From UHGV virus genome UHGV-1357133: a DNA stretch of 23,509 nucleotides. One strand, written 5' to 3'. The first letter of the stretch is position 1. Every line of letters starts with the position of its first letter. This DNA is from a virus. The position numbers and the translations under genes were made by a program. The notes under the pieces were generated by a model. That model was not told the DNA's origin, did no database searches, and saw only the letters and a program-made list of their open reading frames with translations. Below, piece after piece: positions 615 through 21,580 of this stretch.

Positions 615-800
615 ATGACTACTACCGATTTTATGGAAGAACAGGAAGTATTTAACCTGCTTGGAAAAAAGAAAACCGCGGTATGGCGTTTACGTAAAGA
701 CCATGGTTTCCCTATGCCTGTTTTGACATATCCAACACGCTACAGTCGTAAGGCCGTAACGCGTTGGTTAGAAGATGGGGGAATTAATAAATCTAGCTAA
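615..800 (+). CDS. alpA: AlpA-family helix-turn-helix protein, putative excisionase / prophage regulator
   Basis: The track ORF begins at a GTG at 573, but the ATG at 615 has a GAGG Shine-Dalgarno 5 nt upstream. The product (EVFNLLGKKKTAVWRLRKDHGFPMPV...SRKAVTRWLEDGG) matches the AlpA/Vis/TorI pattern that accompanies P4-type integrases. Confidence 0.75.
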   Translation: MTTTDFMEEQEVFNLLGKKKTAVWRLRKDHGFPMPVLTYPTRYSRKAVTRWLEDGGINKSS

Positions 801-2567: not shown

Positions 2568-3737
2568 TTAACATATTTGCTTAATATGCCAGAAGATTTT
2601 GTCTGCATACAACTCATATGCCTCTTTCTGCTCCACCAGCCAATCGTGTTTGTTATAAACCGCCATCACCCCTCCCAGTTCATGCCCCAGCATCTTTTCG
2701 GTGACATGGGGCATAACCCCTTCTCCTGACAAATTGGTTACCAACGACCGCCTGAAGTCGTGCGTTCGCCATTCTGGTATATCAATTTTATCCCTTAACT
2801 TTTTCATGTAGAGATTTGCTGACGAACGATCTATGGCCTTGTCCAGTTCCTGCCCGGGGAAGAGAACATCGTTACCTGAATTAAGCAGCCTTTCCACGAA
2901 TGGCTTTACTTGGTCGAAAACAGGCCTGCGAATCACATTTCCCATCTTGGAGTGCTCTGATGGAGTTGTCCAAATCAAATCATCCATATTGAACTCGCTG
3001 GCGGTAGCAAGGCGAAGTTCCGACAACCTTGCCCCCCAAAGCAACAGAAGCTGATGAAGTACCTTGTTAGAGGTAACGATCTTGTTGTTTTCCAGCGCTA
3101 ACCATATTTTTGCCAACTCGGTATAGGTGAGAACCCGGCTACCAACATCAGGTTTCTTTCCTATGTTCTTAACACTGAGCTTCAAGACTTCGCATGAAGC
3201 GATCAACTGTCGGCTTATACACCAGTTCATTACAGATCGGAGCTGGAGAAGCAGCACTCTGGCCTTTTTTCCGTTTTTCTTTTCCTGCTTGTCGAAGAAC
3301 CTTACCCAGGCTGAAACAGGAATATTTACAACCGGTGCATCCGGGAATTCTGTGTACATGGTGTTGTACACAACAGACTTGTACAACGTTTGCGTATTTG
3401 GTTTCAGCGTTTCAACATACTTGCTCCACCACTGATCCAGACACTCTTTAAGTGTTAGCTCACCATCTTCTTTAGCAAAATAATTTTTAGGGTTTAGTCC
3501 CTTGAGGTACAATTCGCGCATCTCACCCACGATGACACGAGCATCTTTCAGAGACATTGCCGGATAGCGCCCTATAGTAAGGCGCACTGGCTTACCGTTC
3601 CAACGGTAGCGATGTTGAAACGTAATCGTTCCTGTCGGGGTTATGCGTACACTTAGACCGTCACCATCTGTCACTTCGGGTGCGCCGTTGTAGGGCTTAG
3701 CATTGATGCTGCGAAGTTTGGTATCACTGAGGGCCAC
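2568..3737 (-). CDS. int: tyrosine-type site-specific integrase, P4-like family
   Basis: N-terminus ALSDTKLRS...GLSVRITPTG...WNGKPVRLTIGRYPAMSLKDAR matches the arm-binding domain of P4-type integrases; the C-terminal region (HDFRRS...LGH...Y) fits a tyrosine recombinase catalytic domain. The track ORF starts at GTG 3758; GTG 3737 gives the family-typical MALSDTK N-terminus. Start is uncertain. Confidence 0.85.
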   Translation of the reverse strand: MALSDTKLRSINAKPYNGAPEVTDGDGLSVRITPTGTITFQHRYRWNGKPVRLTIGRYPAMSLKDARVIVGEMRELYLKGLNPKNYFAKEDGELTLKECLDQWWSKYVETLKPNTQTLYKSVVYNTMYTEFPDAPVVNIPVSAWVRFFDKQEKKNGKKARVLLLQLRSVMNWCISRQLIASCEVLKLSVKNIGKKPDVGSRVLTYTELAKIWLALENNKIVTSNKVLHQLLLLWGARLSELRLATASEFNMDDLIWTTPSEHSKMGNVIRRPVFDQVKPFVERLLNSGNDVLFPGQELDKAIDRSSANLYMKKLRDKIDIPEWRTHDFRRSLVTNLSGEGVMPHVTEKMLGHELGGVMAVYNKHDWLVEQKEAYELYADKIFWHIKQIC

Positions 3738-3741
3738 GGCT

Positions 3742-3794
3742 CTGTATCCTGTACACACTGAATTTCAGCATTCTGTACTCAATCTGTACGCAAT
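3742..3794. repeat. cluster of CTGTA(C/T) direct repeats, including tandem CTGTACTCAAT / CTGTACGCAAT
   Basis: Four CTGTA(C/T) copies read directly within 3742-3794, spanning the integrase start and its upstream region. Possible protein-binding sites; function unknown. Confidence 0.4.
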
Positions 3795-3946
3795 GGCAAG
3801 TGAACGAAGTGATTTTCTAAGCGGAAGAATGAGAAAGGATAGGAAATAAAAGGAATGAAATGCTTGATGATACGGGGAATGATAGGATAACATGCGACTC
3901 AAGCTGAATGCTTGAAAATCAGTTAGATATATGTCCCCTTAGTTAA

Positions 3947-4001
3947 ATGGATATAAATCAACATTTCACTAATAAATTGTTTTTATTGAATTTATATCCA
4001 T
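3947..4001. repeat. 12-bp perfect inverted repeat ATGGATATAAAT / ATTTATATCCAT with 31-nt AT-rich spacer
   Basis: Arms at 3947-3958 and 3990-4001 read directly from the sequence. Located in the AT-rich intergenic region between int and dinI. Function unknown. Confidence 0.5.
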
Positions 4002-4057
4002 AATTAATTTAAATAATGTACTCATTTATGTACACATAAATTCAACTTAACCCGTGC

Positions 4058-4105
4058 TTGACGTATGCTCCTGAAATAGCTTAAATACTGTATATCCAAA
4101 CAGTA
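4058..4105 (+). promoter_or_regulatory. dinI promoter with overlapping LexA (SOS) box
   Basis: -35 TTGACG (4058-4063), 17-nt spacer, -10 TTAAAT (4081-4086). TACTGTATATCCAAACAGTA (4086-4105) fits the CTGT-N8-ACAG LexA consensus and overlaps the -10. AGGAG Shine-Dalgarno at 4111-4115 precedes the ATG at 4123. Confidence 0.8.
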
Positions 4106-4122
4106 AAGTAAGGAGAAAAAAT

Positions 4123-4362
4123 ATGTTTGTTGAGCTGGTTTATGACAAGCGTAATGTTGAGGGATTGACGGGAGCCAGAGAGATCATCCTGGCTGAACTG
4201 ACGAAGCGTGTGCATCGGATTTTCCCGGATGCAGAAGTGAAGGTGAAGCCGATGCAGGCAAACGGCCTGAATAGCGACGCCAGCAAAAGCGATCGAGAAA
4301 AGCTAAACCGTATGCTTGAGGAAATGTTTGAAGAAGCCGACATGTGGCTGGTTTCAGAATAA
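4123..4362 (+). CDS. dinI: DinI-family DNA-damage-inducible protein (prophage homolog)
   Basis: 79-aa product with the DinI pattern (FPDAEV...acidic C-terminus EEMFEEADMWLVSE) and a LexA box immediately upstream. Strand is opposite to the neighbouring tail genes. Confidence 0.85.
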   Translation: MFVELVYDKRNVEGLTGAREIILAELTKRVHRIFPDAEVKVKPMQANGLNSDASKSDREKLNRMLEEMFEEADMWLVSE

Positions 4363-4521
4363 GAGCATTGTTTTGTCATATTGCATATGTAGAATCCGCA
4401 CCGGCTGGCAATCATTCAATACTCGCACTATCGAACGAACGCCAGCCTGCCGCCGCACGTTCTTGCATACGACGAGCGGCGACATCTATTAAAAGGGAAA
4501 AAGGACTAACTGCCCCTTCCT

Positions 4522-5718
4522 TTACTGCCCTTTCAGTTTGGCAATCTCAGCTTTTAACTCTTGCACTTGGCCCATTATCGCCAGGATTGCTTCATGGTGA
4601 AGTGCCGCCGCGATGCCGTAAGTATCCACTGATTCGACATTTTCAATTTTTTCCCCGTCAGGTAGTTCATAAGTCATGTTGTTGTTTTTTATCGCACCAG
4701 GAAAATATGTCCTGGCTTCACTAGCCACAAAGCCGAACCCTTGTGTTTGCGTGTTTTCATAAAACCAGGAATATCCACGCATGCTTTCCATCGCCACGAG
4801 TGGTTCAGGAATTGTCTCTAACAGGCTTTTTACCCTGATGTCTGATACAGGTTGCCAGTTACCAACCGCCCTGCCATCCGGGAAGAAGTTAAATGAGCTA
4901 CCAGATCCATCTGATCCGACATACAATTGCACAGCCCTGACATCGGTAGAATCACCACGAACAGGACCCAGAGTTAACCCACCATCAAACCATGTTGCCT
5001 GTAAATATCCAACGAACGCACCAGGGGAAATAGTTGCTGCATTGTTCCATATTTTTATGCCATTCACGTTTGCGGAGTTTTTTAAGCCTATATAACTTCC
5101 CGCAGTCGCATATATAGAACCATCAACAGTGCCGCCAGATTTATTGTTTATAGTCAGTAATCTGTTATCATCTCCAGCCGCTACAGTTCCAGCCACTGTT
5201 CCAATATTCTTTGTCGCGCTACTTCCCAGGCCTAAGTTTGTGCGAGCACCTTCTTCAGTGGTTGATCCAGTACCGCCCTGATTAACAGGCACAGCTCCAC
5301 CGGATTTAGTAGCCATGTTATCAGACAAGTATTTCCATGATGGTCCGCTGTATGTACTGCCGTCCGGCAACTTCACTGTTATGTTTCCAGATGCGCTGTA
5401 TACCTGCTGCCAGTTCTGCTTGTCGTAATTCAGTCCACGTAGCGCTTCTGCACTTTGTGCAACCAGCGCTGCAGTTACCATGTTGAGCGCCACGCGGGGA
5501 ACGGCAGACCACGCAGCTTCGGACTGTGTCGGCCCTGTGTATGCGCTGACCAGCGTCAGGCCCGTGTCACTCTCTACCGATTTAACCGGCAGAGTGTATG
5601 GTACACCTCCGACCATTACTACAACGAAATCTCCTGCAGCGAGTTCCGTTACAAATGAAGTACCGATACCCGTCACAATGTCAGAGTTATTGGTCAGGGT
5701 TAAAGTTCCTGCGGACAT
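4522..5718 (-). CDS. tail fibre protein with C-terminal intramolecular chaperone (peptidase S74-like) domain
   Basis: 398 aa, Gly/Ser/Thr/Asn-rich fibre-like sequence. C-terminal region contains SDIRVK followed by a coiled-coil tail (QVQELKAEIAKLKGQ), typical of self-cleaving chaperone domains. GAGGAAAT Shine-Dalgarno upstream. Confidence 0.75.
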   Translation of the reverse strand: MSAGTLTLTNNSDIVTGIGTSFVTELAAGDFVVVMVGGVPYTLPVKSVESDTGLTLVSAYTGPTQSEAAWSAVPRVALNMVTAALVAQSAEALRGLNYDKQNWQQVYSASGNITVKLPDGSTYSGPSWKYLSDNMATKSGGAVPVNQGGTGSTTEEGARTNLGLGSSATKNIGTVAGTVAAGDDNRLLTINNKSGGTVDGSIYATAGSYIGLKNSANVNGIKIWNNAATISPGAFVGYLQATWFDGGLTLGPVRGDSTDVRAVQLYVGSDGSGSSFNFFPDGRAVGNWQPVSDIRVKSLLETIPEPLVAMESMRGYSWFYENTQTQGFGFVASEARTYFPGAIKNNNMTYELPDGEKIENVESVDTYGIAAALHHEAILAIMGQVQELKAEIAKLKGQ

Positions 5719-5728
5719 GGTTATTTCC

Positions 5729-6688
5729 TCAGTACATGTTTGGAAGGATTAAAACGGGCATATTAATATTCTGGTTAAATGACATGTCGAATCCGTTGTC
5801 ATTATAATTACCGACTACCTGGTTATACGCTGACCTGACATTTCCTCCTGACATTACAACGCCTTTTTTTCTTACATTGAAGTATCCATCGACTCTCCTT
5901 GACTGCGCACCTGTAAATACTATCTGGCAATATTTATCACCTACATACTGATTACTGTCGGTCATGGTTAATTGCTGGTCAAATACAAATGGTCGCTTCA
6001 CTGTTGAAAATGTTACCTGTCCTGCTGAATTTGTCATGGTGATGCCATCACCGGCTACAGGAGCGGTATTATTGAAAATTACCAGGTCCATTGTTACAGA
6101 TGCGGAAACATCATCCCTTCCTGAATAACTGATGTCTCTTACAATAATATTTGTTCCGTCAAATCCTACAGATACATTATTGTTATTCCATTTCCCGAAC
6201 GGTATTCCTGATACGGGAAGATCCATCGAACCGTTGACTGTCACCGTGCCAACGTAAGCACATGTCATTAATTTAGCCTGATTTGAAATTGCCGTGAAAT
6301 CAGTAGAGTTGGAAACGAGAAGTCCTTCGTTGTAGGTAGTGGCAGGAAGAATTTCAAATACTGTTCCTGCCCAGTTTGGTATTCGCTGGTAGTTGCCCCT
6401 GTTTGTACCGTTAACAGTAACACCACTGTCTCCGTTTCTTGTCACTGATGTCATATATATCGGCAAAACAATCCATGTTTGATTGTCAGCAAATTCCTGT
6501 ATGTCAACAGGACGTGTCGGCAAAACAAAAACTGTAGAACCCGGAGTTAACGGAGTATCGACGCGAAATTGATTCGCTCCGGTTCCGTTCCCTGAAAAAC
6601 TGGCACAAAACGACGGGGCACGAAGCCCCGCGGTAATAGCCATCACAGGACGGCCATCGTTATAATCTATCAGTATTCCTTCCGGCAT
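5729..6688 (-). CDS. phage tail protein, putative receptor-binding/fibre-associated (family not recognised)
   Basis: 319-aa ORF immediately downstream of J with AAGGTGA Shine-Dalgarno. N/T/G/S-rich composition suggests a beta-rich fibre protein. Function assigned from position and composition only. Confidence 0.55.
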   Translation of the reverse strand: MPEGILIDYNDGRPVMAITAGLRAPSFCASFSGNGTGANQFRVDTPLTPGSTVFVLPTRPVDIQEFADNQTWIVLPIYMTSVTRNGDSGVTVNGTNRGNYQRIPNWAGTVFEILPATTYNEGLLVSNSTDFTAISNQAKLMTCAYVGTVTVNGSMDLPVSGIPFGKWNNNNVSVGFDGTNIIVRDISYSGRDDVSASVTMDLVIFNNTAPVAGDGITMTNSAGQVTFSTVKRPFVFDQQLTMTDSNQYVGDKYCQIVFTGAQSRRVDGYFNVRKKGVVMSGGNVRSAYNQVVGNYNDNGFDMSFNQNINMPVLILPNMY

Positions 6689-6696
6689 ATTTCACC

Positions 6697-9411
6697 TTAT
6701 GTCCAGCGACCGACCACTACACGACCGCCACCGGATAAATTTACAGTGACGCCATTACCATTCAAAACGACAGTATTATTCACGCCATTAAAAGCAAATT
6801 GACCGCTTGTGGCATAAAGTTTGCCGTGAAATTCACAATCTCCACTTTTATCAATATTCCAGCCACTTGATCCTGCTACAAAATTGTTTGACCTTATATA
6901 ATTGCCAATTTTGGCGTTAGTGATACTCCCGTCCTGAATCAGAGCATCCCTGATAAATACCTGGCCGTTATATACGAAGAAGGCAGCAGTATAGTTTCCA
7001 GGGTCGCTACCGGAATAAATGCCGAACTGATCGGCCGCAAAAACTACAGTTGATTTGTATGAGCTACCATCAGGCTCAATGGACATGCCGAAACCGGTAT
7101 TGTATTTCACTCCGTTCCTGACAATACCCATATTGAGCGTATAGGATGCCTTCGCTGTACCATCACTATTAACGACTGCGGTCATCTTTTGATTCACTGC
7201 TGATGTTAGCTCGCCCTCAGGGCCAATCTGCGCCTGAACATACGTGGACAGGTCAGCAAGTCCCTGCTCAGCAGTCGCTACCGTGGTTTTCACGACAAGG
7301 ATATCGGCACGTACCTCACCGTACTGTTGATACTGGTGCTCAACAGTGCCGTGGTTCGCCAGCGAATTTTCCATAATGCCTTCGAGGTTTACATCAACCC
7401 CTTCCTGCACATTTTTAAATGCATCAGAATTCTGAACGGCATCATCAATGAGGTCGATCAGGCCTCCGGTATCCATTGAGCACAGCGCAGGAACCTCAAC
7501 AAATGCTGATGCACCAAAGGCGTTAATCGTCCTGATGTACCAGTAATAGGTGTGACCTACCTGTAGCTGGTTGCTGGTCCATGTAGTGCCGATGCCCTCT
7601 CTAGTGGCGTTACCCTCAACGATTTCAGTCGTGGTTCCGGGAAGCTGAGTTTCGCCGGATGTCCAGAAGTCAAACTGAGTGGAAACGTTTGTTATCGCTG
7701 CAAGACGCGGGATCAGCGTGACGGCAAAGAAACCCTGCTCAATATCAACATGCGACGGAGGAGGCGGGGCCTCAATGCTGAATTCCAGATAGCCTTCAGG
7801 AGATTCCGCTCCCATCTGGTTAACGGCGATAACATGGGCGGTATAGGTATCCTTTGGCAATCCGGTCAGACGTGTAAATGAACCCGGAACCTGAACAGAA
7901 AGCACCATCTGGCCGTTACGACGAATGATGACTTTGTTATAGGTCACCTGCCCCACGTTTTCCCAGGAAAGAATGCCCTGTACCACCTGCCCGATTTCCT
8001 CAACGGTGTATCTGAGGCTTTGCGGCTGTGCCACGCCACCGGACGGTAACTGCGTGAATGGTGGCCGCTCTACAGGCTTACCTATTGCATCACCCCAGAC
8101 ATCAGCAGTTTCCTGTTTCAGCGTTAGCTGTACACCATTCTGCACGCCAAACTTCCAGTCGGTAACGCGCATCTCTACGTTGACGATGCCCAGTGACGGG
8201 AAATTCACCTTCACATACATTCCAGGACGATAACGGTACCCGCTCAGATTCAGCGTCACGTTCATCGTTCTGGCAATACGGGTGCGCTTTAACTTCACAT
8301 CGGCCAGACGCTGAGCCTGAAACTCACTCGTCACAAATCGCAGTTTCATATCCTGCGAAATTTCTACGCCGTCCTCCGTCACCCACTCACTTACGGATAC
8401 AGATGGAAAATCCGCTTCAGTAAACCCCTGCTCAGGATCGACGAATGTTCCCTTGATAGTGTTTACCCGCTCCGACTGGGAGACTTCCGGCATGATTTCG
8501 ATATCGCCGGCCAGCTGGCTTTCGGTGATCACTTCCGTTGCCGGGCCATAATAGGCACCAACAAGCAAGCCGTGCTTACCGGCTATATAGGTGACATCAC
8601 CCGCACAGGCCGCAAGCATCCCCTCAAGAATGCTCACCTTGTTTTCGCTGAGGTCAAACTCACCGTTGATCGTATACCGCTTTTCAACAGTATTACCGCC
8701 AGTGATTACCTCCTCATCGCAGATATTCGCCGCTTCCTGAAACTGGTCCCAGAGGATGTCTGAATCCGGGACTTTCAGATAGTTGCGGTAATAATCCAGA
8801 ATGACCAGCGCAGCATTGTTGCTATATGCCGTCTGCCCGGTTCGCGGGTCGTATATAGCGCGGCCCAGCTTTTCGACTTTAATGTTGGGGATACCAGACG
8901 GGAATTTTTCAGCATTAAATTTAAGGGATACGCGCAGCCAGGTGATCCCTCTCCCGATCATGTCTTCTTTCCATGACGGGCAGTTTTCCAGCATATAAGG
9001 GTCTGCCGCCTGGCGGCTGGTGTGCAGCTCGAAAAAGGCATGCTCAGGATAGCTACTGATCGGTTCATCACCCAGCCAGACCGTCTGAATACCGGATAGC
9101 GGATGTCCAGCCAGAGCAATGGCCAGATGCAACATTTCGCCATCATCCTGTTCGCCAGCCTGCTCTTCGGAAAAGAACAGAGTGCCCGCTGATGTGGAGC
9201 GACCATAAACAACGGTTTTGGCACTGGCTGCCGCACGCAGAACCTGTTTACGCTCTGCCGTATCGCGATAGGAATTCAGAGACGGCGTTTTGGTCAGCGC
9301 CTGAGTAGCGATCTGTGCGGCGACGGTGATCACCATCGCAATGGCATACATTTCATTTGCCGCCGCCACACCTGCGGCAATGCTGGCAACAATAGGAACA
9401 GCAGCAGGCAT
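6697..9411 (-). CDS. host specificity protein / central tail fibre (lambda J-like)
   Basis: 904 aa in the expected position after the NlpC/P60 gene. Central segment ...PPPPSHVDIEQGFFAVTLIP...FDFWTSGETQ...YYWYIRTINAFGASAFVE resembles the fibronectin-type region of J-family proteins. Confidence 0.8.
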   Translation of the reverse strand: MPAAVPIVASIAAGVAAANEMYAIAMVITVAAQIATQALTKTPSLNSYRDTAERKQVLRAAASAKTVVYGRSTSAGTLFFSEEQAGEQDDGEMLHLAIALAGHPLSGIQTVWLGDEPISSYPEHAFFELHTSRQAADPYMLENCPSWKEDMIGRGITWLRVSLKFNAEKFPSGIPNIKVEKLGRAIYDPRTGQTAYSNNAALVILDYYRNYLKVPDSDILWDQFQEAANICDEEVITGGNTVEKRYTINGEFDLSENKVSILEGMLAACAGDVTYIAGKHGLLVGAYYGPATEVITESQLAGDIEIMPEVSQSERVNTIKGTFVDPEQGFTEADFPSVSVSEWVTEDGVEISQDMKLRFVTSEFQAQRLADVKLKRTRIARTMNVTLNLSGYRYRPGMYVKVNFPSLGIVNVEMRVTDWKFGVQNGVQLTLKQETADVWGDAIGKPVERPPFTQLPSGGVAQPQSLRYTVEEIGQVVQGILSWENVGQVTYNKVIIRRNGQMVLSVQVPGSFTRLTGLPKDTYTAHVIAVNQMGAESPEGYLEFSIEAPPPPSHVDIEQGFFAVTLIPRLAAITNVSTQFDFWTSGETQLPGTTTEIVEGNATREGIGTTWTSNQLQVGHTYYWYIRTINAFGASAFVEVPALCSMDTGGLIDLIDDAVQNSDAFKNVQEGVDVNLEGIMENSLANHGTVEHQYQQYGEVRADILVVKTTVATAEQGLADLSTYVQAQIGPEGELTSAVNQKMTAVVNSDGTAKASYTLNMGIVRNGVKYNTGFGMSIEPDGSSYKSTVVFAADQFGIYSGSDPGNYTAAFFVYNGQVFIRDALIQDGSITNAKIGNYIRSNNFVAGSSGWNIDKSGDCEFHGKLYATSGQFAFNGVNNTVVLNGNGVTVNLSGGGRVVVGRWT

Positions 9412-9809
9412 TAACGTACCCTCCAGACACTCATCGGCTTAACCCGCAGGCTGACAAGACCATTTTCGCCAGGCACCCATACAACGCCGGAATACACCAC
9501 GCCAGCGCACTTCGTCCCGGCATTCTCGACGATGGCAATATCCCCACGCTGCGCCAGTTTCACCGGTACTTCGTCGAGAAATCGGGCAAGCACCTTTTCA
9601 AGTGAACCACCACCGCGAAGAATGGCCTTTTTAGCCCCTGGTTCGCTGTCATACGTCCCGCGCCATTCAGCGGCATAATCCTCACCGCACATGGCCTGTG
9701 CGCAGTCGGCCGCAAACAGACAACAGTCATGCTCGCCCCATGAAAAAGGCCGCTCAATGGCGGCCTTCATCACTACGTTTAATCTGTTTTGCCAGTCAGG
9801 GTGCTTCAT
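9411..9809 (-). CDS. phage tail NlpC/P60-family cell-wall peptidase (lambda K-like / GTA gp14-like)
   Basis: 132 aa with a Cys-containing motif WGEHDCCLFAADCAQAM. Sits directly upstream of the J-like gene and is start/stop coupled to it. Confidence 0.6.
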   Translation of the reverse strand: MKHPDWQNRLNVVMKAAIERPFSWGEHDCCLFAADCAQAMCGEDYAAEWRGTYDSEPGAKKAILRGGGSLEKVLARFLDEVPVKLAQRGDIAIVENAGTKCAGVVYSGVVWVPGENGLVSLRVKPMSVWRVR

Positions 9810-9815
9810 GCTTCC

Positions 9816-10400
9816 TCACTTATAGGTAAATCCGGGAGCGTCTTTTTTACTGCCCCAGTAAATCGAACGCTCTGCCATCTGAGCTACGTAACGAAATATG
9901 CGATCGCCTGGATAAGCGGCCTGCTGTGACTCATCGGTATAGCGGTCAGGGAACGGACGCTGCCAGTCTTCAAAAATATTGCTGATGGTGTACTGGAGCG
10001 CGTTAGTCTCGCCGACTGTCGCGCCGGTACTGGATACCCGGCCCTTAAACAGGAGATCGGCAACCTGAACCACACCGTTATCATCCATAGCAACAAGATA
10101 AATCTCGGCATTTTTTCCCACACAACGCTCATTCAGCGTCGTGGCAAAAAGCGACAGATCAAGACCAGAGAGCGTCATTTTGACCTGGGTCGGACTGGTG
10201 GTGTTGGTTTCGCTGGCATCATCGACAGAGCCCATTCGCCCCATGCCGTAATAAACATATCCGCCCAGCACGATTGTCCCGGTGCCGGAATGCACGTAAA
10301 CAGTGCCGGACTCAAACTGGATATTGGCAGCAATCACAGCCGTGACCCGGTCGCGGGAAAGCCAGTCGACCATCGAATCAGAAAAAGGGGAATACAACAT
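9816..10400 (-). CDS. phage minor tail protein (DUF2163 / lambda L-like, by position)
   Basis: 194-aa ORF with GGAGGAGG Shine-Dalgarno, between the distal-tail gene and the NlpC/P60 gene. Gene order matches HK97/GTA-type tail tips. Confidence 0.55.
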   Translation of the reverse strand: MLYSPFSDSMVDWLSRDRVTAVIAANIQFESGTVYVHSGTGTIVLGGYVYYGMGRMGSVDDASETNTTSPTQVKMTLSGLDLSLFATTLNERCVGKNAEIYLVAMDDNGVVQVADLLFKGRVSSTGATVGETNALQYTISNIFEDWQRPFPDRYTDESQQAAYPGDRIFRYVAQMAERSIYWGSKKDAPGFTYK

Positions 10401-10993
10401 TAAAACGCCTCCTCCAGTTCCAGCGTGTAACTGGTAAATACCCCAGGTACTCGATTACCCGCGCCCTGCTGGTTATCCTTCAGTTTGAAAATGCCGTATG
10501 GTTTCGCCACTTCGATAGCCGCGCCATCCGGTGGCGACCAGCGCAACATGGGCGCGAATGTCACAGTGGCTGTACCGGTTGATGTGCTCGTCACATCGGC
10601 GGTCACCATCTTCAGTTCGTCGTTAACGGTGATGTAGTCTCCACGCTCCAGAACTACGACACCGGGAGCCCATCCGCTCGTCTGTAATTCTGTGCCTGTC
10701 TGGTTTGCACCATTCACTACCGGAGAACCCGCGGGAGTGCGCCCGCCCCTTCCCCAGTCATGGATTTTTACCCTGCCATATTCGCCATCCAGCTCGGCAA
10801 TCAGCGAATCAAGACGCCGGGATTTATCATCCGACAGGTTGTTGAATGTCAGGGAGCATACCCAGCGGGTGCCGGGATAACGGACAGTCTGTGACGCACC
10901 ATTAAAAGGAGATCGAAATGTTTTGGTGTTACTTTCAGGTCGCCACGTTAATGACGCCGGACAGACGTCGTCCGGCCATTCAAGTGCAGCCAT
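10400..10993 (-). CDS. phage distal tail protein (DUF2460-like, by position)
   Basis: The track ORF starts at 11035, but the second ATG at 10993 has a CAGGAG Shine-Dalgarno 6 nt upstream while the first has none. First conserved-backbone gene after the tape measure side. Confidence 0.55.
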   Translation of the reverse strand: MAALEWPDDVCPASLTWRPESNTKTFRSPFNGASQTVRYPGTRWVCSLTFNNLSDDKSRRLDSLIAELDGEYGRVKIHDWGRGGRTPAGSPVVNGANQTGTELQTSGWAPGVVVLERGDYITVNDELKMVTADVTSTSTGTATVTFAPMLRWSPPDGAAIEVAKPYGIFKLKDNQQGAGNRVPGVFTSYTLELEEAF

Positions 10994-11155
10994 AAATACT
11001 CCTGGAGAAATACGCGCAACGGCGATACTGATCATTTGTCAGGGTGTTACAGGTCAATATCCCTGGTTAAAGTGTGTGGTTCAGCCCGTCAGTGGTTGGA
11101 CACTGGCGCACTCAGCGCAGAGGGATGGCTGATTACCTCTGATTAAGGAAATATC

Positions 11156-11449
11156 ATGTCTAATGAACAGCGTATCGAAAGCTTCGAAGCCCGTATTCGT
11201 AAGCTTGAAGAGGAAAACACTAAGCAGAAACAAAAGCTACTAACTCATGAAATTATGACGGGACTTATGTTGACAAATATTTTAAGAATGGTTGACTCAT
11301 TATCTCCTAGTGCAAACTTATCACAACGGTTGCTGGAATCCCTGCAAAAAGGCCAAGCAAAAATTGCTGATAGCGATGCGAGAAATGACCCTCATACAAA
11401 GGACGCATTTGAAATGGCAATTAAGACTGTGAATCGAGCGCTAAAATAA
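11156..11449 (+). CDS. hypothetical 97-aa protein (cargo gene inside tail module, opposite strand)
   Basis: ATG preceded by AAGGAAA 5 nt upstream. AT-rich relative to flanking tail genes. Predicted coiled-coil N-terminus (EQRIESFEARIRKLEEEN). Its 3' end overlaps the convergent 119-aa gene by 29 nt. Confidence 0.5.
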   Translation: MSNEQRIESFEARIRKLEEENTKQKQKLLTHEIMTGLMLTNILRMVDSLSPSANLSQRLLESLQKGQAKIADSDARNDPHTKDAFEMAIKTVNRALK

Positions 11450-11780
11450 CAGCGTTATCAAGAAGACGATCTCTTAGTTTATCGTAGTCCTTATCATTTT
11501 CCGCGGCCTGTTTTCGGGTCGCTTCAATAATCTTCGAGAGAACATTTTGAGCATGCTCTTTCGCTCTCTGGTTGTACTCTTCAAGCGTAAGCTCTGGCGT
11601 TAAGTCTTCGCTGTATTGGATAGTAGCTAAGGTTTCTTTGCTAATTTTCACAGACACATTACTGCCAATGCGTTGTGTCGATGACATGCGTAAATTTTCT
11701 CCGAAGGATATTCTTACTCCATTTTCTTCCGGAAACCCAACTTTAAATTCAAGAGCCTCAACTCGCTGTTCTAAAGTCAT
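11421..11780 (-). CDS. hypothetical 119-aa protein (cargo gene downstream of tape measure)
   Basis: ATG preceded by AGGAGA 5 nt upstream. AT-rich. N-terminus MTLEQRVEALEFKV resembles the N-terminus of the convergent 97-aa ORF. Confidence 0.55.
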   Translation of the reverse strand: MTLEQRVEALEFKVGFPEENGVRISFGENLRMSSTQRIGSNVSVKISKETLATIQYSEDLTPELTLEEYNQRAKEHAQNVLSKIIEATRKQAAENDKDYDKLRDRLLDNAVILALDSQS

Positions 11781-11825
11781 AATTATCTCCTGCCTTTCGG
11801 CTAATTAAATTAAGGATGCAGACCA

Positions 11826-14800
11826 TCACACGCCTAACAAACGACGTGCCTGGCCTCGATTGGAAAAGTCCTGCAGCAAATCCTGACGCGCCTGTTTAGC
11901 GCCATCATTCGCCCCCTGACGGGCTGCTTCCTGCATTGCCTGTTTCAGTGCTGCATCACCATTACCGGATATGGTGAAATGCTGGGTGATGTGCTGAGTT
12001 ATGCCATTTCCGGATGCTGGAGTCTGTGAACCAACCACACGCACTCCTAACGATCCATCAGCGGAGCGGGTTAACGGCATGATAGCTTCCGGCCCAGCTT
12101 CCCCCATCAAACCTGCGCCTTTGGCGAAGGCAAAATAGGTAGGCGAACTGACGATGCTGTTACTGTATGCGCTGAGGCTTGCAGAAGCATAGGCGCCTCC
12201 CTTTGCGTTGAGTTGAAGTTCTGATGCTGCTGAGTTGTAGGCGCCAGACGGCGTTGAGCCACCAGCCGACCCGCCAAACAGCCCACTGAGGAATCCACTA
12301 CCCCCCATAGATGACTGCAGAGAATTAACGATCATCGCATTGAGGATAATTTTCTGCATAGACTGAAGAACCGAACTGGCCCAGTCTTCCCAGTCAACCT
12401 TATTACCGGAAAGCGCATCAGAAATATTTCCCACCAGCCCGGTCATGGCATTGTTTACCAGATCTGCCGACTGTGAGGCATAATCGGAAGCAGTTTCAGC
12501 CCAGTTAGCGAATCCTTCACGCATACCAGCCGTCCAGTCGCTACGCTGTGCATCAGACGCAGCATAGAAACCTTGCTGATCGCGCAGGCGCTCATCAAGA
12601 TAACGTTTGTTTAAAGCCAAGGCTTCTTGGTAGAAAGCTTCGTCTATTTCACCAGTTTGTCGTTGCCGAAGCAGATCAGTATTCTTCTCTTCAAATTCCT
12701 TACGAATATTGAACTGTTCCTGAAGCCTTTCGCGAAACCGAGAACCCTGACCGTAACCGATTAGTTGAGCCTCGTTCGCTGCGCGGGAGCTTGCATTACT
12801 GTCTGCGAGATTCGCCTCGTAATTACGAAGTTGCTCACGTATTTTTTGCTGATCAATAAGCGCGGCATTCTGCAACAGGGTCTGTTTCTGGGACTCTGTC
12901 AGCGTCGCCAGTTCGCCCTGGCTAACCTGATATTTCAGTTTTGCCAGTTCGGTATTTTGACCAGCCAGAGCAATCTGCTCTTTCTGCTGCTTGATCAGCT
13001 TGTCATATGTATCAGATGTTTTTTCGGCCTCGGATTTTCCACCCTTATGGCGGCTTGAGTTACGAATTGCTTGTAATTGCCTGGCAGACTCAACTTCCAT
13101 GCTGACATATTTCTCACGCCAACCAGCTGGAAGGTTCAGATCAGATGCATCGAATTCTGCCTGCTTTCGAGCCTTATCCAAACCCTGAAGGCCAGATAGC
13201 TCAAGCTGTCGCTGTGCTTTCTCAATAGCTTGTTGTTGCTTATTATCAAGCGCAGGAAGTACAGGTCCTGCATATTTTGGTGGGGACACTGCTGTAGACT
13301 GTCTGGAAACCTTGTTCAGCCGGTCATACATCTCTGTAAGAGAACTTACGGCGCCAGCCATTTCTACTGTTTTATTTATAGCCTGATCAGTTATGTCGTT
13401 TATTAACTGTTGTGTTTGCTTTCTTTTATTGAGCATTTGCTCAAGTCGGCCTTCTTCAACCGCAAGTTCTGAAGCAAAGTCTGCGGCTTTCTCAACCGCA
13501 TCGTTATACAGCCATGTCCCCTCTGAAGCAGAATTGGCTGCTAATTTTGCGTTATAAAGTTGATTGGATAATTCAGCAACTTTCTGCTTCTGCTGTTCAA
13601 TCGCACTATTCTGAGCATCCAGTGAAATATTCGCCTGTCCAAGGTTGGCGGATATCTGCGTCTGAGACATTGATTTCAGATTATCTCGTACCTGCTCGAT
13701 TGTGTCCGCATATTGGATTGCAGATTCCCTGGCTTGTTCTTGGCGTTGATACATCGTGTACCACGCCCCAGCACCCAACATTAAAATTCCTGGCAAACCA
13801 CCAACTAACGACAAAAGAACCGTAGCGCCAGTTTTTACAAGCCCCAGCACTGATGTTGCAGAGTTAAGTGCCTGCTGAGAGGCTGCAACGGCTCTGTTTG
13901 ACTGTACCAGTGCCGCATTTGCTGTAATCATTTCCCGGCGCTTGGATATGGCATTTTGAGTGGCAGTAGCCTCAGCATTAGTATTCTTTGCCAGCACAAG
14001 TTCTGACTGAGCAAGCTGGTAAGCTCGCTCAGCAGCAATAGCATCGGCGGCGGCCTTGCGTTGTGATTGGGTAGCAGATTCAGCCCTTGCAGCTGCGAGC
14101 GCAATTTCGTTCTTTCTGGCATCTATTAATTGCGCCGTCTGGTTCCCAAGATCGCCAAACATCCCTCCAAGATAGCGAGCTCCACCTATCGCAGCCAAAG
14201 CTCCGGCAGCCGTAGCCACAGTGTCTATATTGTCAGAAACCGTATTCAATACGGCAACAAGAGTACTTGTCGCACCAGTGGCTTCATTAGCGCCACCTAC
14301 CCATGCCATGAAAGCATTTTCGACTTTCGTCGTGGCAGCAGAAACGGTCTGCGGCATTGCCTCAAATTCACCACGCATAGTGCCAAGTTGACTTATCAGG
14401 GCCGGGACAACTTTATCTGCGGTTAGCATCCCCTGATCGGCCATTGCCTTCAGATCTTTACGAGCTACACCCATCCCTGCGGCAAGAGCACGGATAACTC
14501 GATCACCGTTTTCGTTGACGGAGTTAAATTCCTCGCCTCGAAGAACACCCTGCGCCAGAGCCTGGCTGAACTGCGTGATTACCGAACTCGCTTCAGACGC
14601 GCTTGCGCCTGACAGCTTAAGCCCTGTTGATATAGCCTCGGTTACCTTCAGAACCTCTTCTGAACTGTAGCCATATTCACGCATAGAAGCGGCTGAACGC
14701 GCAAAAAGACTCGCATTATCAGAGAAGGCGGTTCCGGTTCGCTGGCTAATATCCATCAGCGCCCGCTGGGACTCCGTGAAATCATCTGACGACTGGGAAG

Positions 14801-15113
14801 CCTGCTTTAGCCTGGCATTAACAGAGCTCCATTCATCGGCCAGCGATATAAGATGACCAGTCGCAAATGCTCCAGCAAATGCACCAGCCATTCCCAGTGC
14901 TGAGGCCTTCGCGGTGTTTATTTGACTAGTTACCTCAGCCAAGGCACGCTGAGTTTCACGCGAAGCTGCGGCCGATTGGCGTCCTCCAGTCTGCATTACC
15001 CGGTAATAGTCATTCCCCATTCTTGAAGCACGAGAAATTTCAGACTGGAATGACTGAGAGTTTGCAGATATTTTGATGATCAGTTCGCGCAACGTAGCCA
15101 TATTTTCACCCAT
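11826..15113 (-). CDS. tail tape measure protein
   Basis: 1095-aa Ala/Gln-rich, largely helical protein in the canonical position after G/T. The first ATG (15111-15113) directly abuts a T-tract with no Shine-Dalgarno; the in-frame ATG at 15099-15101 (MATLREL...) is a more plausible start. Confidence 0.85.
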   Translation of the reverse strand: MGENMATLRELIIKISANSQSFQSEISRASRMGNDYYRVMQTGGRQSAAASRETQRALAEVTSQINTAKASALGMAGAFAGAFATGHLISLADEWSSVNARLKQASQSSDDFTESQRALMDISQRTGTAFSDNASLFARSAASMREYGYSSEEVLKVTEAISTGLKLSGASASEASSVITQFSQALAQGVLRGEEFNSVNENGDRVIRALAAGMGVARKDLKAMADQGMLTADKVVPALISQLGTMRGEFEAMPQTVSAATTKVENAFMAWVGGANEATGATSTLVAVLNTVSDNIDTVATAAGALAAIGGARYLGGMFGDLGNQTAQLIDARKNEIALAAARAESATQSQRKAAADAIAAERAYQLAQSELVLAKNTNAEATATQNAISKRREMITANAALVQSNRAVAASQQALNSATSVLGLVKTGATVLLSLVGGLPGILMLGAGAWYTMYQRQEQARESAIQYADTIEQVRDNLKSMSQTQISANLGQANISLDAQNSAIEQQKQKVAELSNQLYNAKLAANSASEGTWLYNDAVEKAADFASELAVEEGRLEQMLNKRKQTQQLINDITDQAINKTVEMAGAVSSLTEMYDRLNKVSRQSTAVSPPKYAGPVLPALDNKQQQAIEKAQRQLELSGLQGLDKARKQAEFDASDLNLPAGWREKYVSMEVESARQLQAIRNSSRHKGGKSEAEKTSDTYDKLIKQQKEQIALAGQNTELAKLKYQVSQGELATLTESQKQTLLQNAALIDQQKIREQLRNYEANLADSNASSRAANEAQLIGYGQGSRFRERLQEQFNIRKEFEEKNTDLLRQRQTGEIDEAFYQEALALNKRYLDERLRDQQGFYAASDAQRSDWTAGMREGFANWAETASDYASQSADLVNNAMTGLVGNISDALSGNKVDWEDWASSVLQSMQKIILNAMIVNSLQSSMGGSGFLSGLFGGSAGGSTPSGAYNSAASELQLNAKGGAYASASLSAYSNSIVSSPTYFAFAKGAGLMGEAGPEAIMPLTRSADGSLGVRVVGSQTPASGNGITQHITQHFTISGNGDAALKQAMQEAARQGANDGAKQARQDLLQDFSNRGQARRLLGV

Positions 15114-15138
15114 AAAAAAAACCCGCTTGATAGCGGGT
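15114..15138 (-). terminator. intrinsic terminator-like hairpin after the 62-aa cargo gene
   Basis: On the minus strand: stem ACCCGC / GCGGGT (15121-15126 and 15133-15138) with a 6-nt loop, followed by seven T (15114-15120), ending at the tape measure ATG. Confidence 0.6.
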
Positions 15139-15144
15139 CGTGAG

Positions 15145-15333
15145 TTATAAACTGTCTTTTCTTTGGTGAGCGACTTGTATTAATAAATCTATTTGCGCAT
15201 CTTGCTTTTTATTTATCTCTTTAAGGGCTTCAACTTGTTCATTTGCCCTTGTGCTAAACCGTAATAAATAAAAAATCACAATTAGATTTATCAGCCAGCC
15301 GAATATTCCAAACACTACTACCAGTGGTTCCAT
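15145..15333 (-). CDS. hypothetical 62-aa single-pass membrane protein (cargo gene between G-T and tape measure)
   Basis: Strongly AT-rich ORF with AGGAGG Shine-Dalgarno 4 nt upstream and a terminator downstream. N-terminal hydrophobic helix LVVVFGIFGWLINLIVIFYLL, then a charged helical tail. Confidence 0.6.
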   Translation of the reverse strand: MEPLVVVFGIFGWLINLIVIFYLLRFSTRANEQVEALKEINKKQDAQIDLLIQVAHQRKDSL

Positions 15334-15390
15334 AACGCCTCCTTTACTTAAGGAAAGAGCGTATCGCTACATTGAAGGCATGTGAAGCAA

Positions 15391-15669
15391 TTATTGTGTC
15401 GCAGCTGTAAGTGCCGCCTCAAGCCCTGCAAACGGGTCCTTCGGTTCTGATTGCTCATCACCACCCCAGCGCAGGATCGCATCGTCCAGCGGTACTTTTG
15501 CCCCCTGCGAGCCGTAGATGGCAGAGACAATCTGCGCTGCATGGATATCACCGCGAATATCGCCAACCGGACTTTGCCTGTCGTACTCAATCCACATCAG
15601 AAGCTCGCTTGCCGTCATATTCTGCCGAAGCTCTGAGAGCGTGCGCCCCATCCGGAGCGCAAGCGACAT
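15391..15669 (-). CDS. tail assembly protein T domain (likely made as a G-T fusion by -1 frameshift)
   Basis: Product MTASELLMWIEYDRQ... resembles the lambda gpT region. The frame is -1 relative to G and stays open upstream to about 15729, overlapping the 3' end of G. Confidence 0.6.
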   Translation of the reverse strand: MSLALRMGRTLSELRQNMTASELLMWIEYDRQSPVGDIRGDIHAAQIVSAIYGSQGAKVPLDDAILRWGGDEQSEPKDPFAGLEAALTAATQ

Positions 15670-15677
15670 CAGAAACT

Positions 15678-16061
15678 TTACGCCGGGGGTTGAGACTTTT
15701 CCCGCGCTTCGTCCGCGTTGTTGATCAGGTCAAGCGCCTGCTTGAGCAGGCGTGAATGGACGGGGCCGTAGATTTCACGCACCTGCTCTTCTTCGTCTAC
15801 GCTGAATACCGGTTGCTTATCGGTGTCGCACAGGACGTCAATGAAGAGCACCACGTCAGCGCAAAGATTACGGTGTGCCTTTTCCGATACCGACACATTT
15901 TCATCATCAGCACCCGCTTTCACCACTTCCTGCCAGCGCAGCCAGGCTTCACCTGATGGCTCACGGAGAACCACTTTGACGCCTTCCCACTCAGGAACGG
16001 CGACCGTCTTATGACGAAATCCCGACATCTTAGCCAGGGCGAGATTTTTAATATTCTTCAT
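15678..16061 (-). CDS. tail assembly chaperone (lambda G-like)
   Basis: 127-aa acidic protein directly upstream of the T frame and tape measure. Contains CGGGAAAAG near its 3' end, where the T frame opens. Confidence 0.55.
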   Translation of the reverse strand: MKNIKNLALAKMSGFRHKTVAVPEWEGVKVVLREPSGEAWLRWQEVVKAGADDENVSVSEKAHRNLCADVVLFIDVLCDTDKQPVFSVDEEEQVREIYGPVHSRLLKQALDLINNADEAREKSQPPA

Positions 16062-16069
16062 GCGACCTC

Positions 16070-16513
16070 TCAGGAGCCAGACTCGATGTTTTCAGGCTTA
16101 CCTTTCAGGCGCAGGGAGAACGTTGCCGCAACTACGCCGTTGGTACCGGAAGACCAGGTGTGCTGGCGGATTTCAGCCAGGAACTTAAAGCCCTTGCCGG
16201 ACGGGAAGATAACCTGGAAAGCGTAGGTCGTATCGTTGTCATACGCTTCACGCAAGGCGTCCTGCGCCGGGTTTTTGTAGAAGTTGCCGGACAGAGAGAT
16301 TTCTGACGGAGAAGGCAGGCCGTTGACGTTCTCCTGCTCGGTAGAGCAAAGCGTGGTTACGTTAATATCCTGCTTCTGGCCACCAGTGAACTGAATTTCT
16401 TTGATGGTGCAACTCAGATCGAGGAAGGTTGCGGTATCCATCGTTTCTTTGGTGGCTGGCAGGGAGGAAATAAGGATCTTCGTCAGCTGCGATTTTTCAT
16501 AAAGTGCAGACAT
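16070..16513 (-). CDS. major tail (tube) protein
   Basis: 147-aa ORF with AGGAGA Shine-Dalgarno, located between the tail completion gene and the G/T chaperones. Assigned by position and size. Confidence 0.6.
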   Translation of the reverse strand: MSALYEKSQLTKILISSLPATKETMDTATFLDLSCTIKEIQFTGGQKQDINVTTLCSTEQENVNGLPSPSEISLSGNFYKNPAQDALREAYDNDTTYAFQVIFPSGKGFKFLAEIRQHTWSSGTNGVVAATFSLRLKGKPENIESGS

Positions 16514-16520
16514 AGCTGTC

Positions 16521-16554
16521 TCCTGGAAAAAGAAAACCCGCCATCAGGCGGGTT
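16521..16554 (-). terminator. terminator-like stem-loop directly upstream of the major tail gene
   Basis: On the minus strand: 8-bp perfect stem AACCCGCC / GGCGGGTT (16535-16542 and 16547-16554), 4-nt loop, then TTTTCTTTTTCC (16521-16534) running into the major tail Shine-Dalgarno. Confidence 0.5.
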
Positions 16555-16572
16555 CGTTGGGTGAATTAATTG

Positions 16573-16920
16573 TCAGGGGGTAACTTTAAAATCCAGGGTG
16601 GCACGGTAGAGCCGATAATCTGGCTCGTACCCGGGGATTTTTACCACCTCTGTAGGGTTTAACTGCTTAAGCGATGCGAGCGCCAAATCTCTCAGGGATC
16701 GTGATTCAGTGATCGTTGTGGCATACACATCGACCTGAACGGAAACCCTGCTCTCTGCCTGGCCACACAGTACGTCAGCGGAAACATCATCGACGATGGA
16801 AAAGATAATCCAGGGTGGCGAGACAGACGGTTTTCCGTCACTACCTAATGGCGCAACGTAGGGATATACCCGCCCTTCTGCCAGGGGAGAAAGCAAAGCG
16901 TAGATATCATCTTCATTCAC
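16573..16920 (-). CDS. putative tail completion / tail terminator protein (DUF3168-like)
   Basis: 115-aa ORF with GTG start overlapping the stop of the gp10-like gene (GTGA). Position between gp10-like and major tail genes. Confidence 0.5.
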   Translation of the reverse strand: MNEDDIYALLSPLAEGRVYPYVAPLGSDGKPSVSPPWIIFSIVDDVSADVLCGQAESRVSVQVDVYATTITESRSLRDLALASLKQLNPTEVVKIPGYEPDYRLYRATLDFKVTP

Positions 16921-17376
16921 TTGCTCAACACCTCATCAATAGCCTGATTCATCCTAGCAATGGCGACGCTGGCGGCCTCTTCCTCGCGCGTATCGTAAGC
17001 GGGTCGCACAAAAGGATGCGCAGGCATGTTCGCAGTGCCAATCTCCACAAAGCGCCAGTAAAAGGCGTTTCTCGGGTTACTCGCCTTCATTGTGTTATCG
17101 CTGTTCCCGGTGCGCGGGTTAACACCACGAATATGGACGCCGGAANNNNNNNNNNNNNNNNNNNNNGCGGCGACGGCTTTTTTGGGTCACCACCACCACG
17201 TTTTTTTTCAGTTTCCCGGTACGCACGGGAGCGCGGGCGATCACTTCTTCCTTAAGCACTTCGGCTCCAGCGCGCGTTGCATCACGCAAAACCTTGTTGT
17301 TTTCGGCACGGCTCAGTAATTCCAGATCGCGGGATATCTCTTCAAGGCCAGAAAAATCAAGACTGATATCAATCAT
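16917..17376 (-). CDS. HK97 gp10-family protein, interrupted by an assembly gap
   Basis: N-terminal part MIDISLDFSGLEEISRDLELL... runs into the N run. My translation of the frame below the gap is open down to TGA at 16917-16919 (...FYWRFVEIGTANMPAHPFVRPAYDT...AIDEVLSK). True length depends on the real gap size. Confidence 0.6.
17146..17166. other. assembly gap (run of 21 N)
   Basis: Directly visible in the sequence. Confidence 0.99.
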
Positions 17377-17711: not shown

Positions 17712-17719
17712 AATACCTC

Positions 17720-18255: not shown

Positions 18256-18261
18256 AAATCA

Positions 18262-18287
18262 CCTCGAAAAATCGGGGCCGAAGCCCC
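18262..18287 (-). terminator. terminator-like hairpin downstream of the major capsid gene
   Basis: On the minus strand: stem GGGGC / GCCCC (18274-18278 and 18283-18287) with a 4-nt loop, followed by ATTTTTC, then the Shine-Dalgarno of the next gene. Confidence 0.45.
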
Positions 18288-18293
18288 AGAGAA

Positions 18294-19502: not shown

Positions 19503-19515
19503 AATTAACTCCTGA

Positions 19516-21570: not shown

Positions 21571-21580
21571 AACTGCCTCT

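Follow-up and report, generated by a model that had tools for sequence, protein, structure and literature searches.

Positions 3750-4036 of a 23,509-nt viral DNA (the window, virus genome UHGV-1357133) are, with a probability that we put at about nine in ten, the intact attP (P-O-P′) of a lambdoid, HK97-like temperate phage whose integrase recombines into the 5′ part of argW, the gene for tRNA-Arg(CCU). The region is read as attP because the two arms that flank its core in the window appear separated at the two ends of prophages integrated in argW. A preliminary description of the same DNA had suggested either an attachment or recombination site or an int regulatory site. The first of these suggestions is borne out: the int half of the region occurs elsewhere as attR with a full tRNA-Arg, and the dinI half occurs as attL after yfdC.

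Results

The core and its junctions in lysogens

The site lies in the interval 3738-4122, between leftward int and rightward dinI, and its central segment is shared with a host tRNA gene.

2568-3737, minus strand: int, with a GTG start at 3737 (M/V-ALSDTKLR...); tyrosine integrase of the P4/CP4 type with an N-terminal arm-binding domain
3933-3956, plus strand: core, GTCCCCTTAGTTAAATGGATATAA, equal to nt 1-24 of tRNA-Arg(CCU), argW
4123-4362, plus strand: dinI coding sequence; Pfam PF06183 DinI, 8.4e-24

The window diverges from tRNA-Arg(CCU) at tRNA nt 25. When positions 3300-4500 were compared by megablast with E. coli genomes, 52 chromosomes matched from int up to window position 3956, and among the records listed this end of the match falls inside an annotated tRNA-Arg. 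The preliminary description had seen no tRNA-like sequence in the interval and had held that the target could not be named. Both statements were mistaken: positions 3933-3956 are nt 1-24 of tRNA-Arg(CCU), and this 24-nt fragment identifies argW as the target.

The separation of the two arms is seen most directly in E. coli EC7, which carries a prophage of about 37 kb between yfdC and argW whose int region is 88% identical to the window. At the EC7 attR, int is followed by the P arm and then by complete argW; at its attL, yfdC is followed by the native argW promoter, GTCCTCTTAGTTAAATGGATAT, and then a P′ arm with a ATGTACTCATATATGTACACA pair. With the host parts of attL and attR joined, the 269 nt obtained match the uninterrupted yfdC-argW site in BW25113 and in other strains at 100% identity. 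The set compared for empty sites consisted of 5426 E. coli genomes, and attL by itself covers 80% of the query.

The window's own arms behave in the same way. Its exact Int protein is encoded in many public bacterial assemblies (45 index blocks), and upstream of int the eight loci examined agree with window positions 3738-3932 at 194-195 of 195 nt. In these eight loci the P arm is followed by a 75-nt tRNA-Arg, which ARAGORN, applied to two of them, identified as tRNA-Arg(CCT). On the other side, six of the eight loci shown encode the exact DinI protein immediately after fadL-yfdF-mlaA-yfdC, and their intergenic order is host argW promoter, tRNA nt 1-24, and P′ arm, that is, attL. The P′ arm is identical to that of the window in four of the six (L101-L103 and L107) and differs from it by single bases in the other two. 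The three loci compared agree with the window at 1593-1598 of 1600 nt counted from the dinI start codon, a stretch that takes in dinI and most of the tail-fibre gene. Further attL sites were found in L088-L090. Both in EC7 and for the window's own P and P′ arms, then, the core is duplicated at both prophage ends and the arms are separated, as expected of an attP. The preliminary description had proposed alignment to the host chromosome and to empty sites as the way to find the attL/attR core, and had held that boundaries mapping elsewhere would speak against a site here; the core was found at 3933-3956, and there the lysogen boundaries fall.

Comparison of the junctions narrows the point of exchange. 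At tRNA nt 5, the host T is present at E. coli attL sites and the phage C at attR sites; among the six DinI-side attL loci, five have an E. coli B arm and T at nt 5, and L101, whose B arm is different, has C. Identity between phage and tRNA stops after nt 22 in some relatives, the EC7 phage among them. Because attL and attR differ at nt 5 and identity ends after nt 22, these alignments imply that strand exchange must fall within tRNA nt 6-22, equivalent to window positions 3938-3954. Integration is not of the kind that uses the 3′ half of a tRNA gene: the core corresponds to tRNA nt 1-24, and at attR the 5′ end comes from the phage and the 3′ part of the tRNA, CCA end included, from the host.

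A tRNA fragment in a phage could also be the remnant of a phage-encoded tRNA-Arg that was truncated by deletion or mosaic recombination and has no role in crossover. Two phage records annotate tRNA-Arg beside a homologous int, and ARAGORN sees no intact tRNA in the window (zero complete tRNA genes). The record that was inspected, ON470608.1, is a prophage excerpt that runs into host sucrose-utilisation genes, and therefore its tRNA-Arg is the host gene at attR. Moreover, independent phages in the attP state with unrelated P′ arms all leave the tRNA after nt 22-24, and a copy of this segment stands at each end of the prophage. With a match of only 24 nt and no intact gene, the window does not encode a tRNA, and we regard a decayed phage tRNA gene as a very improbable source of the segment.

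State of the site

The genes on either side show which form of the site the window holds. The structural genes, from terminase through tail fibres, lie to the right of dinI on the minus strand (4522-23338); to the left of the site are int, three cargo ORFs, a small Xis-like ORF, and a homologue of dATP/dGTP pyrophosphohydrolase. Structural genes are followed by dinI, the site, int, and early genes, the Xis-like ORF among them, as in the vegetative map of lambdoid phages and not as at a prophage end. Judged by this order, the site in the window is therefore in the unrecombined P-O-P′ form, either the attP of a phage or the equivalent junction of tandem prophages. Consistently, int and the same site are found in mid-genome in the sequenced phages Stx2 phage 86 and Hafnia phage yong2. 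It follows from the unrecombined form that alignment of the window to the host chromosome would recover attB, and not attL or attR.

Direct searches for the window's own junction gave no match. The exact P-O-P′ junction is absent from all public contigs sampled (genome, viral, and metagenome contigs), the 23-mer ATCAACATTTCACTAATAAATTG from the window P′ arm has no exact match in the same three kinds of contig, and the whole window was not found in any E. coli complete genome or phage record, where only mosaic parts match. The window P′ arm was located instead through loci encoding the exact DinI protein. A 24-mer from a conserved P′ block gave four useful matches in IMG/VR. A match of this 24-mer in a Rheinheimera genome has no att context and was set aside as a chance AT-rich match.

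These results bear on the second form of P-O-P′, a hybrid junction of two tandem prophages at argW, in which int and the P arm would belong to one element and the P′ arm, dinI, and tail genes to the other. Such a site would be chemically of the same kind and recombinogenic, but its flanks would not be those of one phage genome. The two flanks do differ in their closest relatives, in that the int side is closest to Klebsiella and E. coli prophages, at about 88% identity, and for the structural genes further right the nearest matches are E. coli HK97/mEp234-like prophages, at 92-97%. In addition, the exact junction occurs in no sampled contig, the sampled copies of Int are all at attR, and those of DinI are at attL or other sites. 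Mosaicism of this degree is, however, normal in single lambdoid genomes, and the order int, attP, SOS-related gene, tail fibre genes is also that of yong2, which derives from virions. A second set of early genes is something that a 23.5-kb window cannot reveal. Taken together, the evidence makes a tandem junction unlikely, and we retain the attP of a single phage as the preferred reading.

Repeats flanking the core

Five copies of one motif, GTACNCA, lie on the two sides of the core, and all are in the same orientation.

3750-3757, plus strand: arm-type site P1, TGTACACA; lies 13-20 nt before the int start codon, within the 5′ UTR
3774-3781, plus strand: arm-type site P2, TGTACTCA; part of a tandem 11-mer
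3785-3792, plus strand: arm-type site P3, TGTACGCA; part of a tandem 11-mer
4017-4024, plus strand: arm-type site P′1, TGTACTCA; dinI side
4029-4036, plus strand: arm-type site P′2, TGTACACA; dinI side

The preliminary description had pointed to four CTGTA(C/T) repeats, two of them in a tandem 11-mer. All four are present (at 3742, 3749, 3773, and 3784), as is the 11-mer (CATTCTGTACT and CAATCTGTACG, 3769-3790), but the two copies on the dinI side at 4017-4024 and 4029-4036 had been missed, and the full set is five. GTACNCA is the sharper description of these repeats: its five copies on the plus strand of 3738-4122 compare with 0.037 expected, and none of 2000 shuffles of this interval reached five. 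The pattern TGTACNCA has eight matches in the 23.5-kb window, all of them confined to 3351-4036.

The spacing of the motif is conserved to a degree that its surroundings are not. The copies stand at -181, -157, and -146 from the core in P and at +63 and +75 in P′. In ten of ten P′ arms (the window, EC7 attL, the IMG/VR loci L087, L061, and L064, the attL sites L088-L090, Stx2 phage 86, and yong2), the P′ pair lies downstream of tRNA nt 22 by 63 and 75 nt, to within 1 nt, and yet the 60 nt between the core and the pair are diverged and largely unalignable. Offsets were compared across the window, EC7, four IMG/VR attP sites, three attL sites, Stx2 phage 86, and yong2, and the three P-arm sites have the same three offsets in all P arms examined. 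P2 and P3 are invariant in Stx2 phage 86 and yong2 despite differing neighbouring sequence. From the number, placement, and conservation of the five repeats, we infer that they are arm-type sites that would be bound by Int. Arm sites were among the element types that had been anticipated for the CTGTAC repeats, and their membership in a five-copy set with offsets kept among relatives agrees with that assignment.

The integrase and a putative excisionase

The product of int has the domains expected of an enzyme that uses such sites. Both PF13356 Arm-DNA-bind_3 (5.7e-18) and PF00589 Phage_integrase (2.6e-17) score above the Pfam cut-offs, the N-terminal domain matches the solved arm-binding domains of CP4-like integrases (3JTZ and 3JU0), and the translation contains the motifs GARLSELR, HDFRRS, and LGH...VY. 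The start codon is the same one that RefSeq annotates in the E. coli EC7 homologue. Over its full length (residues 1-388), the protein is 85.8% identical in amino acid sequence to the Int of argW-inserting Stx2a phages. This similarity and the insertion point between yfdC and argW are those of the argW-specific, intW-type family, and by these two measures the window integrase is a member of the known family of argW-inserting Stx2a phages.

A candidate partner is encoded at the far side of the cargo genes.

615-800, plus strand: putative excisionase (RDF), 61 aa, AlpA/Xis-like helix-turn-helix; convergent with int

Its Pfam matches, HTH_17 (1.8e-4) and Phage_Cox (3.8e-3), are both below the cut-offs. 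The protein is 85% identical to the helix-turn-helix protein at the same position in EC7 and 57% identical to orf37 of Stx2 phage 86, and several related Stx2a phage records annotate Xis or excisionase at the position of orf37, beside int. By homology and position, this AlpA/Xis-like protein is the likely excision factor.

Candidate promoters

Three promoter-like elements were noted in or next to the site, one for each neighbouring gene and one directed at the tRNA.

3770-3799, minus strand: putative int promoter; -35 TTGCCA (3799-3794), 18-nt spacer, -10 CAGAAT (3775-3770)
3864-3893, plus strand: putative tRNA-directed promoter; TTGATG (3864-3869), 18-nt spacer, TAACAT (3888-3893)
4058-4362, plus strand: dinI unit with its promoter, TTGACG (4058-4063) and TTAAAT (4081-4086); right-hand neighbour, outside attP
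4086-4105: LexA box TACTGTATATCCAAACAGTA, upstream of dinI

The LexA box and promoter hexamers of the dinI unit were read directly from the sequence. The putative int promoter comes from a consensus scan only, with 9 of 12 matches, and its hexamers are conserved in relatives; P2 and P3 lie inside its spacer. In KplE1, the promoter of the IntS gene overlaps an att arm (attL) and is negatively autoregulated by Int and the directionality factor (PMC2951348). Because two arm sites occupy the spacer of the putative promoter here, Int probably represses its own gene, by analogy with that system.

The same arrangement could be taken to mean that the region holds only the operators and promoter of int, with the att site elsewhere; the promoter-like element does overlap two of the repeats, and the KplE1 gene offers the precedent of an autoregulated integrase promoter overlapping attL (PMC2951348). 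Two of the five repeats are nonetheless 280 nt from the int start, past the core, and belong to the other prophage end in lysogens. On both sides, lysogens have the prophage boundary exactly at 3933-3956, and these attL and attR junctions contradict an att site elsewhere. A regulatory role is compatible with attP and is no alternative to it, and we consider a purely regulatory region very improbable.

At attP, the element directed at the core may have a different function. Across six attP sites whose P arms have otherwise diverged, CTTGAT (3863-3868) and TA..AT (3888-3893) stay unchanged as islands 18 nt apart, oriented towards the core, and the equivalent in Stx2 phage 86 is TTGATT-18-TATTAT. 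The window element agrees with the consensus at 8 of 12 positions, which is under the threshold of the scan tool and hence was not reported by it. Its conservation and direction suggest that TTGATG-18-TAACAT is a candidate phage-borne promoter that would replace the tRNA promoter after integration.

A more far-reaching proposal is that lysogeny rewires the transcription of both argW and dinI, with a hairpin confined to one lineage tuning read-through; we regard this as speculative and rather improbable. Were it true, a rare-codon tRNA, tRNA-Arg(CCU), would be expressed from a phage promoter (3864-3893) embedded among sites for Int, Xis, and IHF. The displaced host tRNA promoter at attL would drive transcription through the 24-nt stub and the P′ arm into LexA-controlled dinI. 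Expression of dinI could then depend on integration and could damp RecA-mediated induction, and the hairpin at 3947-4001 would tune the read-through. In the window dinI follows the hairpin in sense orientation, whereas it is absent downstream of the hairpin in L087-L090.

Other elements of the interval

The preliminary description had also listed an inverted repeat and a pair of GATAGGA(A/T)A sequences, and it had raised IHF sites and a crossover core as the kinds of element to be expected. The region is AT-rich (GC = 0.32 for 3901-4200).

3947-3958 and 3990-4001: 12-bp inverted repeat, ATGGATATAAAT and ATTTATATCCAT; perfect, 31 nt between arms
3838 and 3881: GATAGGA(A/T)A, nowhere else in the window
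3970-3982, minus strand: candidate IHF site, AAACAATTTATTA, one mismatch to WATCAANNNNTTR; in the P′ arm
3854-3866 and 3956-3968, plus strand: further one-mismatch IHF matches

The inverted repeat is indeed perfect and at the place given, and it is rare by chance: among 500 dinucleotide shuffles of 3738-4122, one produced a perfect inverted repeat of at least 12 bp with a spacer of at most 60 nt. The repeat is neither the crossover core nor a universal feature of attP. Only its left arm overlaps the core, at the D-loop (right) end, while its right arm is P′-arm sequence. EC7, L061, L064, Stx2 phage 86, and yong2 lack the repeat, which is conserved, with a variable spacer, only in a sub-lineage comprising the window (with L101-L103 and L107) and L087-L090. 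A hairpin is predicted for the corresponding RNA (z = -3.1). In L087-L090 the repeat is followed by a T-run; the window has no such U-tract, and a terminator scan of 3600-4200 found none. A possible role of the repeat is that of a transcription barrier against the tRNA promoters, with the U-tract missing in the window.

Both GATAGGA(A/T)A copies are present as had been described. By a rough estimate, a second occurrence of a 9-mer that tolerates two bases at one position is, in a stretch of about 300 nt, not significant alone, and we therefore give the pair no independent weight. Close relatives retain it, L087 has a degraded version, and neither Stx2 phage 86 nor yong2 has it; together with the chance estimate, this distribution does not support a conserved binding site. 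The attP model leaves both the GATAGGA repeats and the 12-bp inverted repeat unexplained.

Matches to the IHF consensus are more frequent than expected, with three one-mismatch matches in about 385 nt against about 0.4 expected from the window-wide rate; the scan found no perfect match in these 385 nt. At the position aligned to 3970-3982, Stx2 phage 86 has CAATCCATTGATT, which by eye is a perfect IHF consensus.

Discussion

We propose that the interval functions as attP in the following manner. The N-terminal domain of Int would bind the five GTACNCA sites and its catalytic domains would bind the core, probably with the assistance of bending proteins (IHF), and strands would be exchanged within tRNA nt 6-22, that is, in the D-arm. 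Because insertion at the 5′ end separates argW from its native promoter, the phage would have to supply the first 6-22 nt of the tRNA together with a new promoter, for which 3864-3893 is the candidate. The host argW promoter and a 24-nt stub of the tRNA would remain at attL, aimed into the P′ arm and dinI. Binding of Int at P2 and P3 would repress int, and the protein encoded at 615-800 would direct excision.

For annotation, the value of the analysis is that the target (the argW 5′ end), the core, and five arm sites are given to the base and that the unrecombined form of the site is recognised. The biology is mostly established, in that argW is among the standard sites for Stx2a phages, and Klebsiella is known to have elements at the 5′ end of an arg tDNA. 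Less commonplace is that integration at the 5′ end obliges the phage to supply a tRNA promoter, for which a conserved candidate is visible. The site is ordinary and well populated in kind, and is unusual only in its use of the 5′ rather than the 3′ end of a tRNA gene.

The closest known systems are the argW-inserting Stx2a phages, among them Stx2 phage 86, ArgO145, PA2/PA8/PA28, and Stx2a_F451; the integrase of the TW14359 prophage is named intW. Like the window, Stx2a phages have the core GTCC(T/C)CTTAGTTAAATGGATATAA and are inserted between yfdC and argW with int adjoining the tRNA, and published PCR primers for the junctions place the Stx2a prophage between yfdC and the argW anticodon, with int beside the tRNA (PMC3519850; PMC8309913). 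Stx2 phage 86 further shares with the window the three P and two P′ GTACNCA sites at the same offsets and a homologous small Xis-like protein, but is without the 12-bp inverted repeat. Stx2 phage 86 and phi296 are Sepvirinae of the genus Traversvirus. Unlike the Stx2a phages, the window has HK97/mEp234-like siphovirus structural genes, cargo genes between int and xis, and no stx within its limits, and the P and P′ sequence between the conserved islands has diverged.

In Klebsiella, elements that use the 5′ end of an arg tDNA are already on record. Passages searched in a preprint report integration at the 5′ end, over the 5′ acceptor half, D-stem, and D-loop, and, at arg2A of Klebsiella pneumoniae, prophages or islands at the 5′ end with one island per end in some strains (bioRxiv 10.1101/2020.11.02.365908). 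The arg2A site, as presented in these passages, resembles that of the window in being the 5′ end of an arg tDNA, and we do not equate it here with the CCU isoacceptor. The same passages mention neither arm sites nor promoter replacement (bioRxiv 10.1101/2020.11.02.365908), and in the literature on D-loop tRNA integration we found no dedicated description beyond this preprint. Klebsiella phage records carry an Int that is 95.9% identical to that of the window. Occupancy of both sides is seen for argW also: in L092-L099, the same argW tDNA bears an integrase-bearing element at its 3′ end. The gene is thus a two-sided hotspot with mobile elements at both ends, which is relevant to the accumulation of Stx phages and islands.

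KplE1 uses the opposite (3′) end of argW. As in the window, the integrase of this KplE1/CPS-53 IntS-TorI system, also a user of argW, is tRNA-associated and transcribed away from the att site, its int promoter overlaps an att arm (an overlap that is putative in the window), and a separate small gene encodes the RDF (PMC2951348).

With lambda attP, the window site shares a core with arm-type repeats on both sides, a span of about 290 bp, a position between the end of the tail/b-region and int in the vegetative map, and dependence on IHF and Xis, the last being likely in the window. The two differ in that int is transcribed away from attP in the window and towards it in lambda, in the arm motif, and in the N-terminal domain of Int, which in the window is of the P4/CP4 type (PF13356), unlike that of lambda. 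Finally, the target of the window phage is a tRNA gene, whereas that of lambda is the gal-bio intergenic site.

Occupancy of argW

Every bacterial locus examined that carries the exact Int of the window (L092-L099) also contains a second integrase gene on the opposite side of the tRNA-Arg gene, at approximately 8400-10000 of each locus. These second integrases are 385-445 aa in length, possess a PF13356 domain, and come from P4-like satellites, from P22-like phages or from other islands. In these loci, therefore, argW is occupied by elements at both of its ends.

Accessory genes of the recombination module

The region on the Xis-like (putative excisionase) side of int includes the following features:

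51-533, + strand: homologue of dATP/dGTP pyrophosphohydrolase (PF04447, 7e-42)
821-2476, - strand: three cargo ORFs, flanked by int and the Xis-like gene

One of these ORFs, 1601-2476, encodes a 291-aa protein that matches PDC-S42, a PADLOC candidate defence family (2.8e-39). Because a DUF2971 gene occupies the equivalent slot in the related prophage of E. coli EC7, this place inside the recombination module looks like a variable position for cargo or defence genes. The pyrophosphohydrolase homologue adjoins the Xis-like ORF and lies at the window's left edge. Of the eight prophage loci shown with this Int, seven conserve it at the equivalent position.

Repeat in the P arm and a presumed chance match to the P' block

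The exact 9-mer AATGCTTGA occurs twice in the P arm, at 3859-3867 and 3907-3915 (48 nt apart). The first copy includes the -35 element of the putative tRNA-directed promoter, and the second has diverged in relatives. The conserved P' block TGTTTTTATTGAATTTATATCCAT has an exact 24-nt match in an unrelated gammaproteobacterial genome, that of Rheinheimera sp. 4Y26 (L086, 833-856). Neither a tRNA fragment nor a GTAC pair lies near this match, which was taken to be an AT-rich coincidence.

SOS-linked genes at the P' end

The P' arm is followed by:

4058-4362: dinI region, with a canonical LexA box, TACTGTATATCCAAACAGTA, at 4086-4105

The first base of this box is the final base of the -10 hexamer (4081-4086). 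A pair resembling that of the window's P' arm, ATGTACTCAATTTTGTACTTA, lies upstream of the gene for an identical DinI protein in another bacterial locus (L105, 5860-5960), where the chromosomal setting differs, the adjoining gene being PBP5-like and not yfdC. Possibly this is the P' arm used by a related integrase whose target is different. In Hafnia phage yong2 (L091, 2640-2740), the place of dinI beside the P' arm is taken by a recA-like gene with LexA-box-like sequences upstream of it. SOS-linked accessory genes seem to recur at the P' end of attP.
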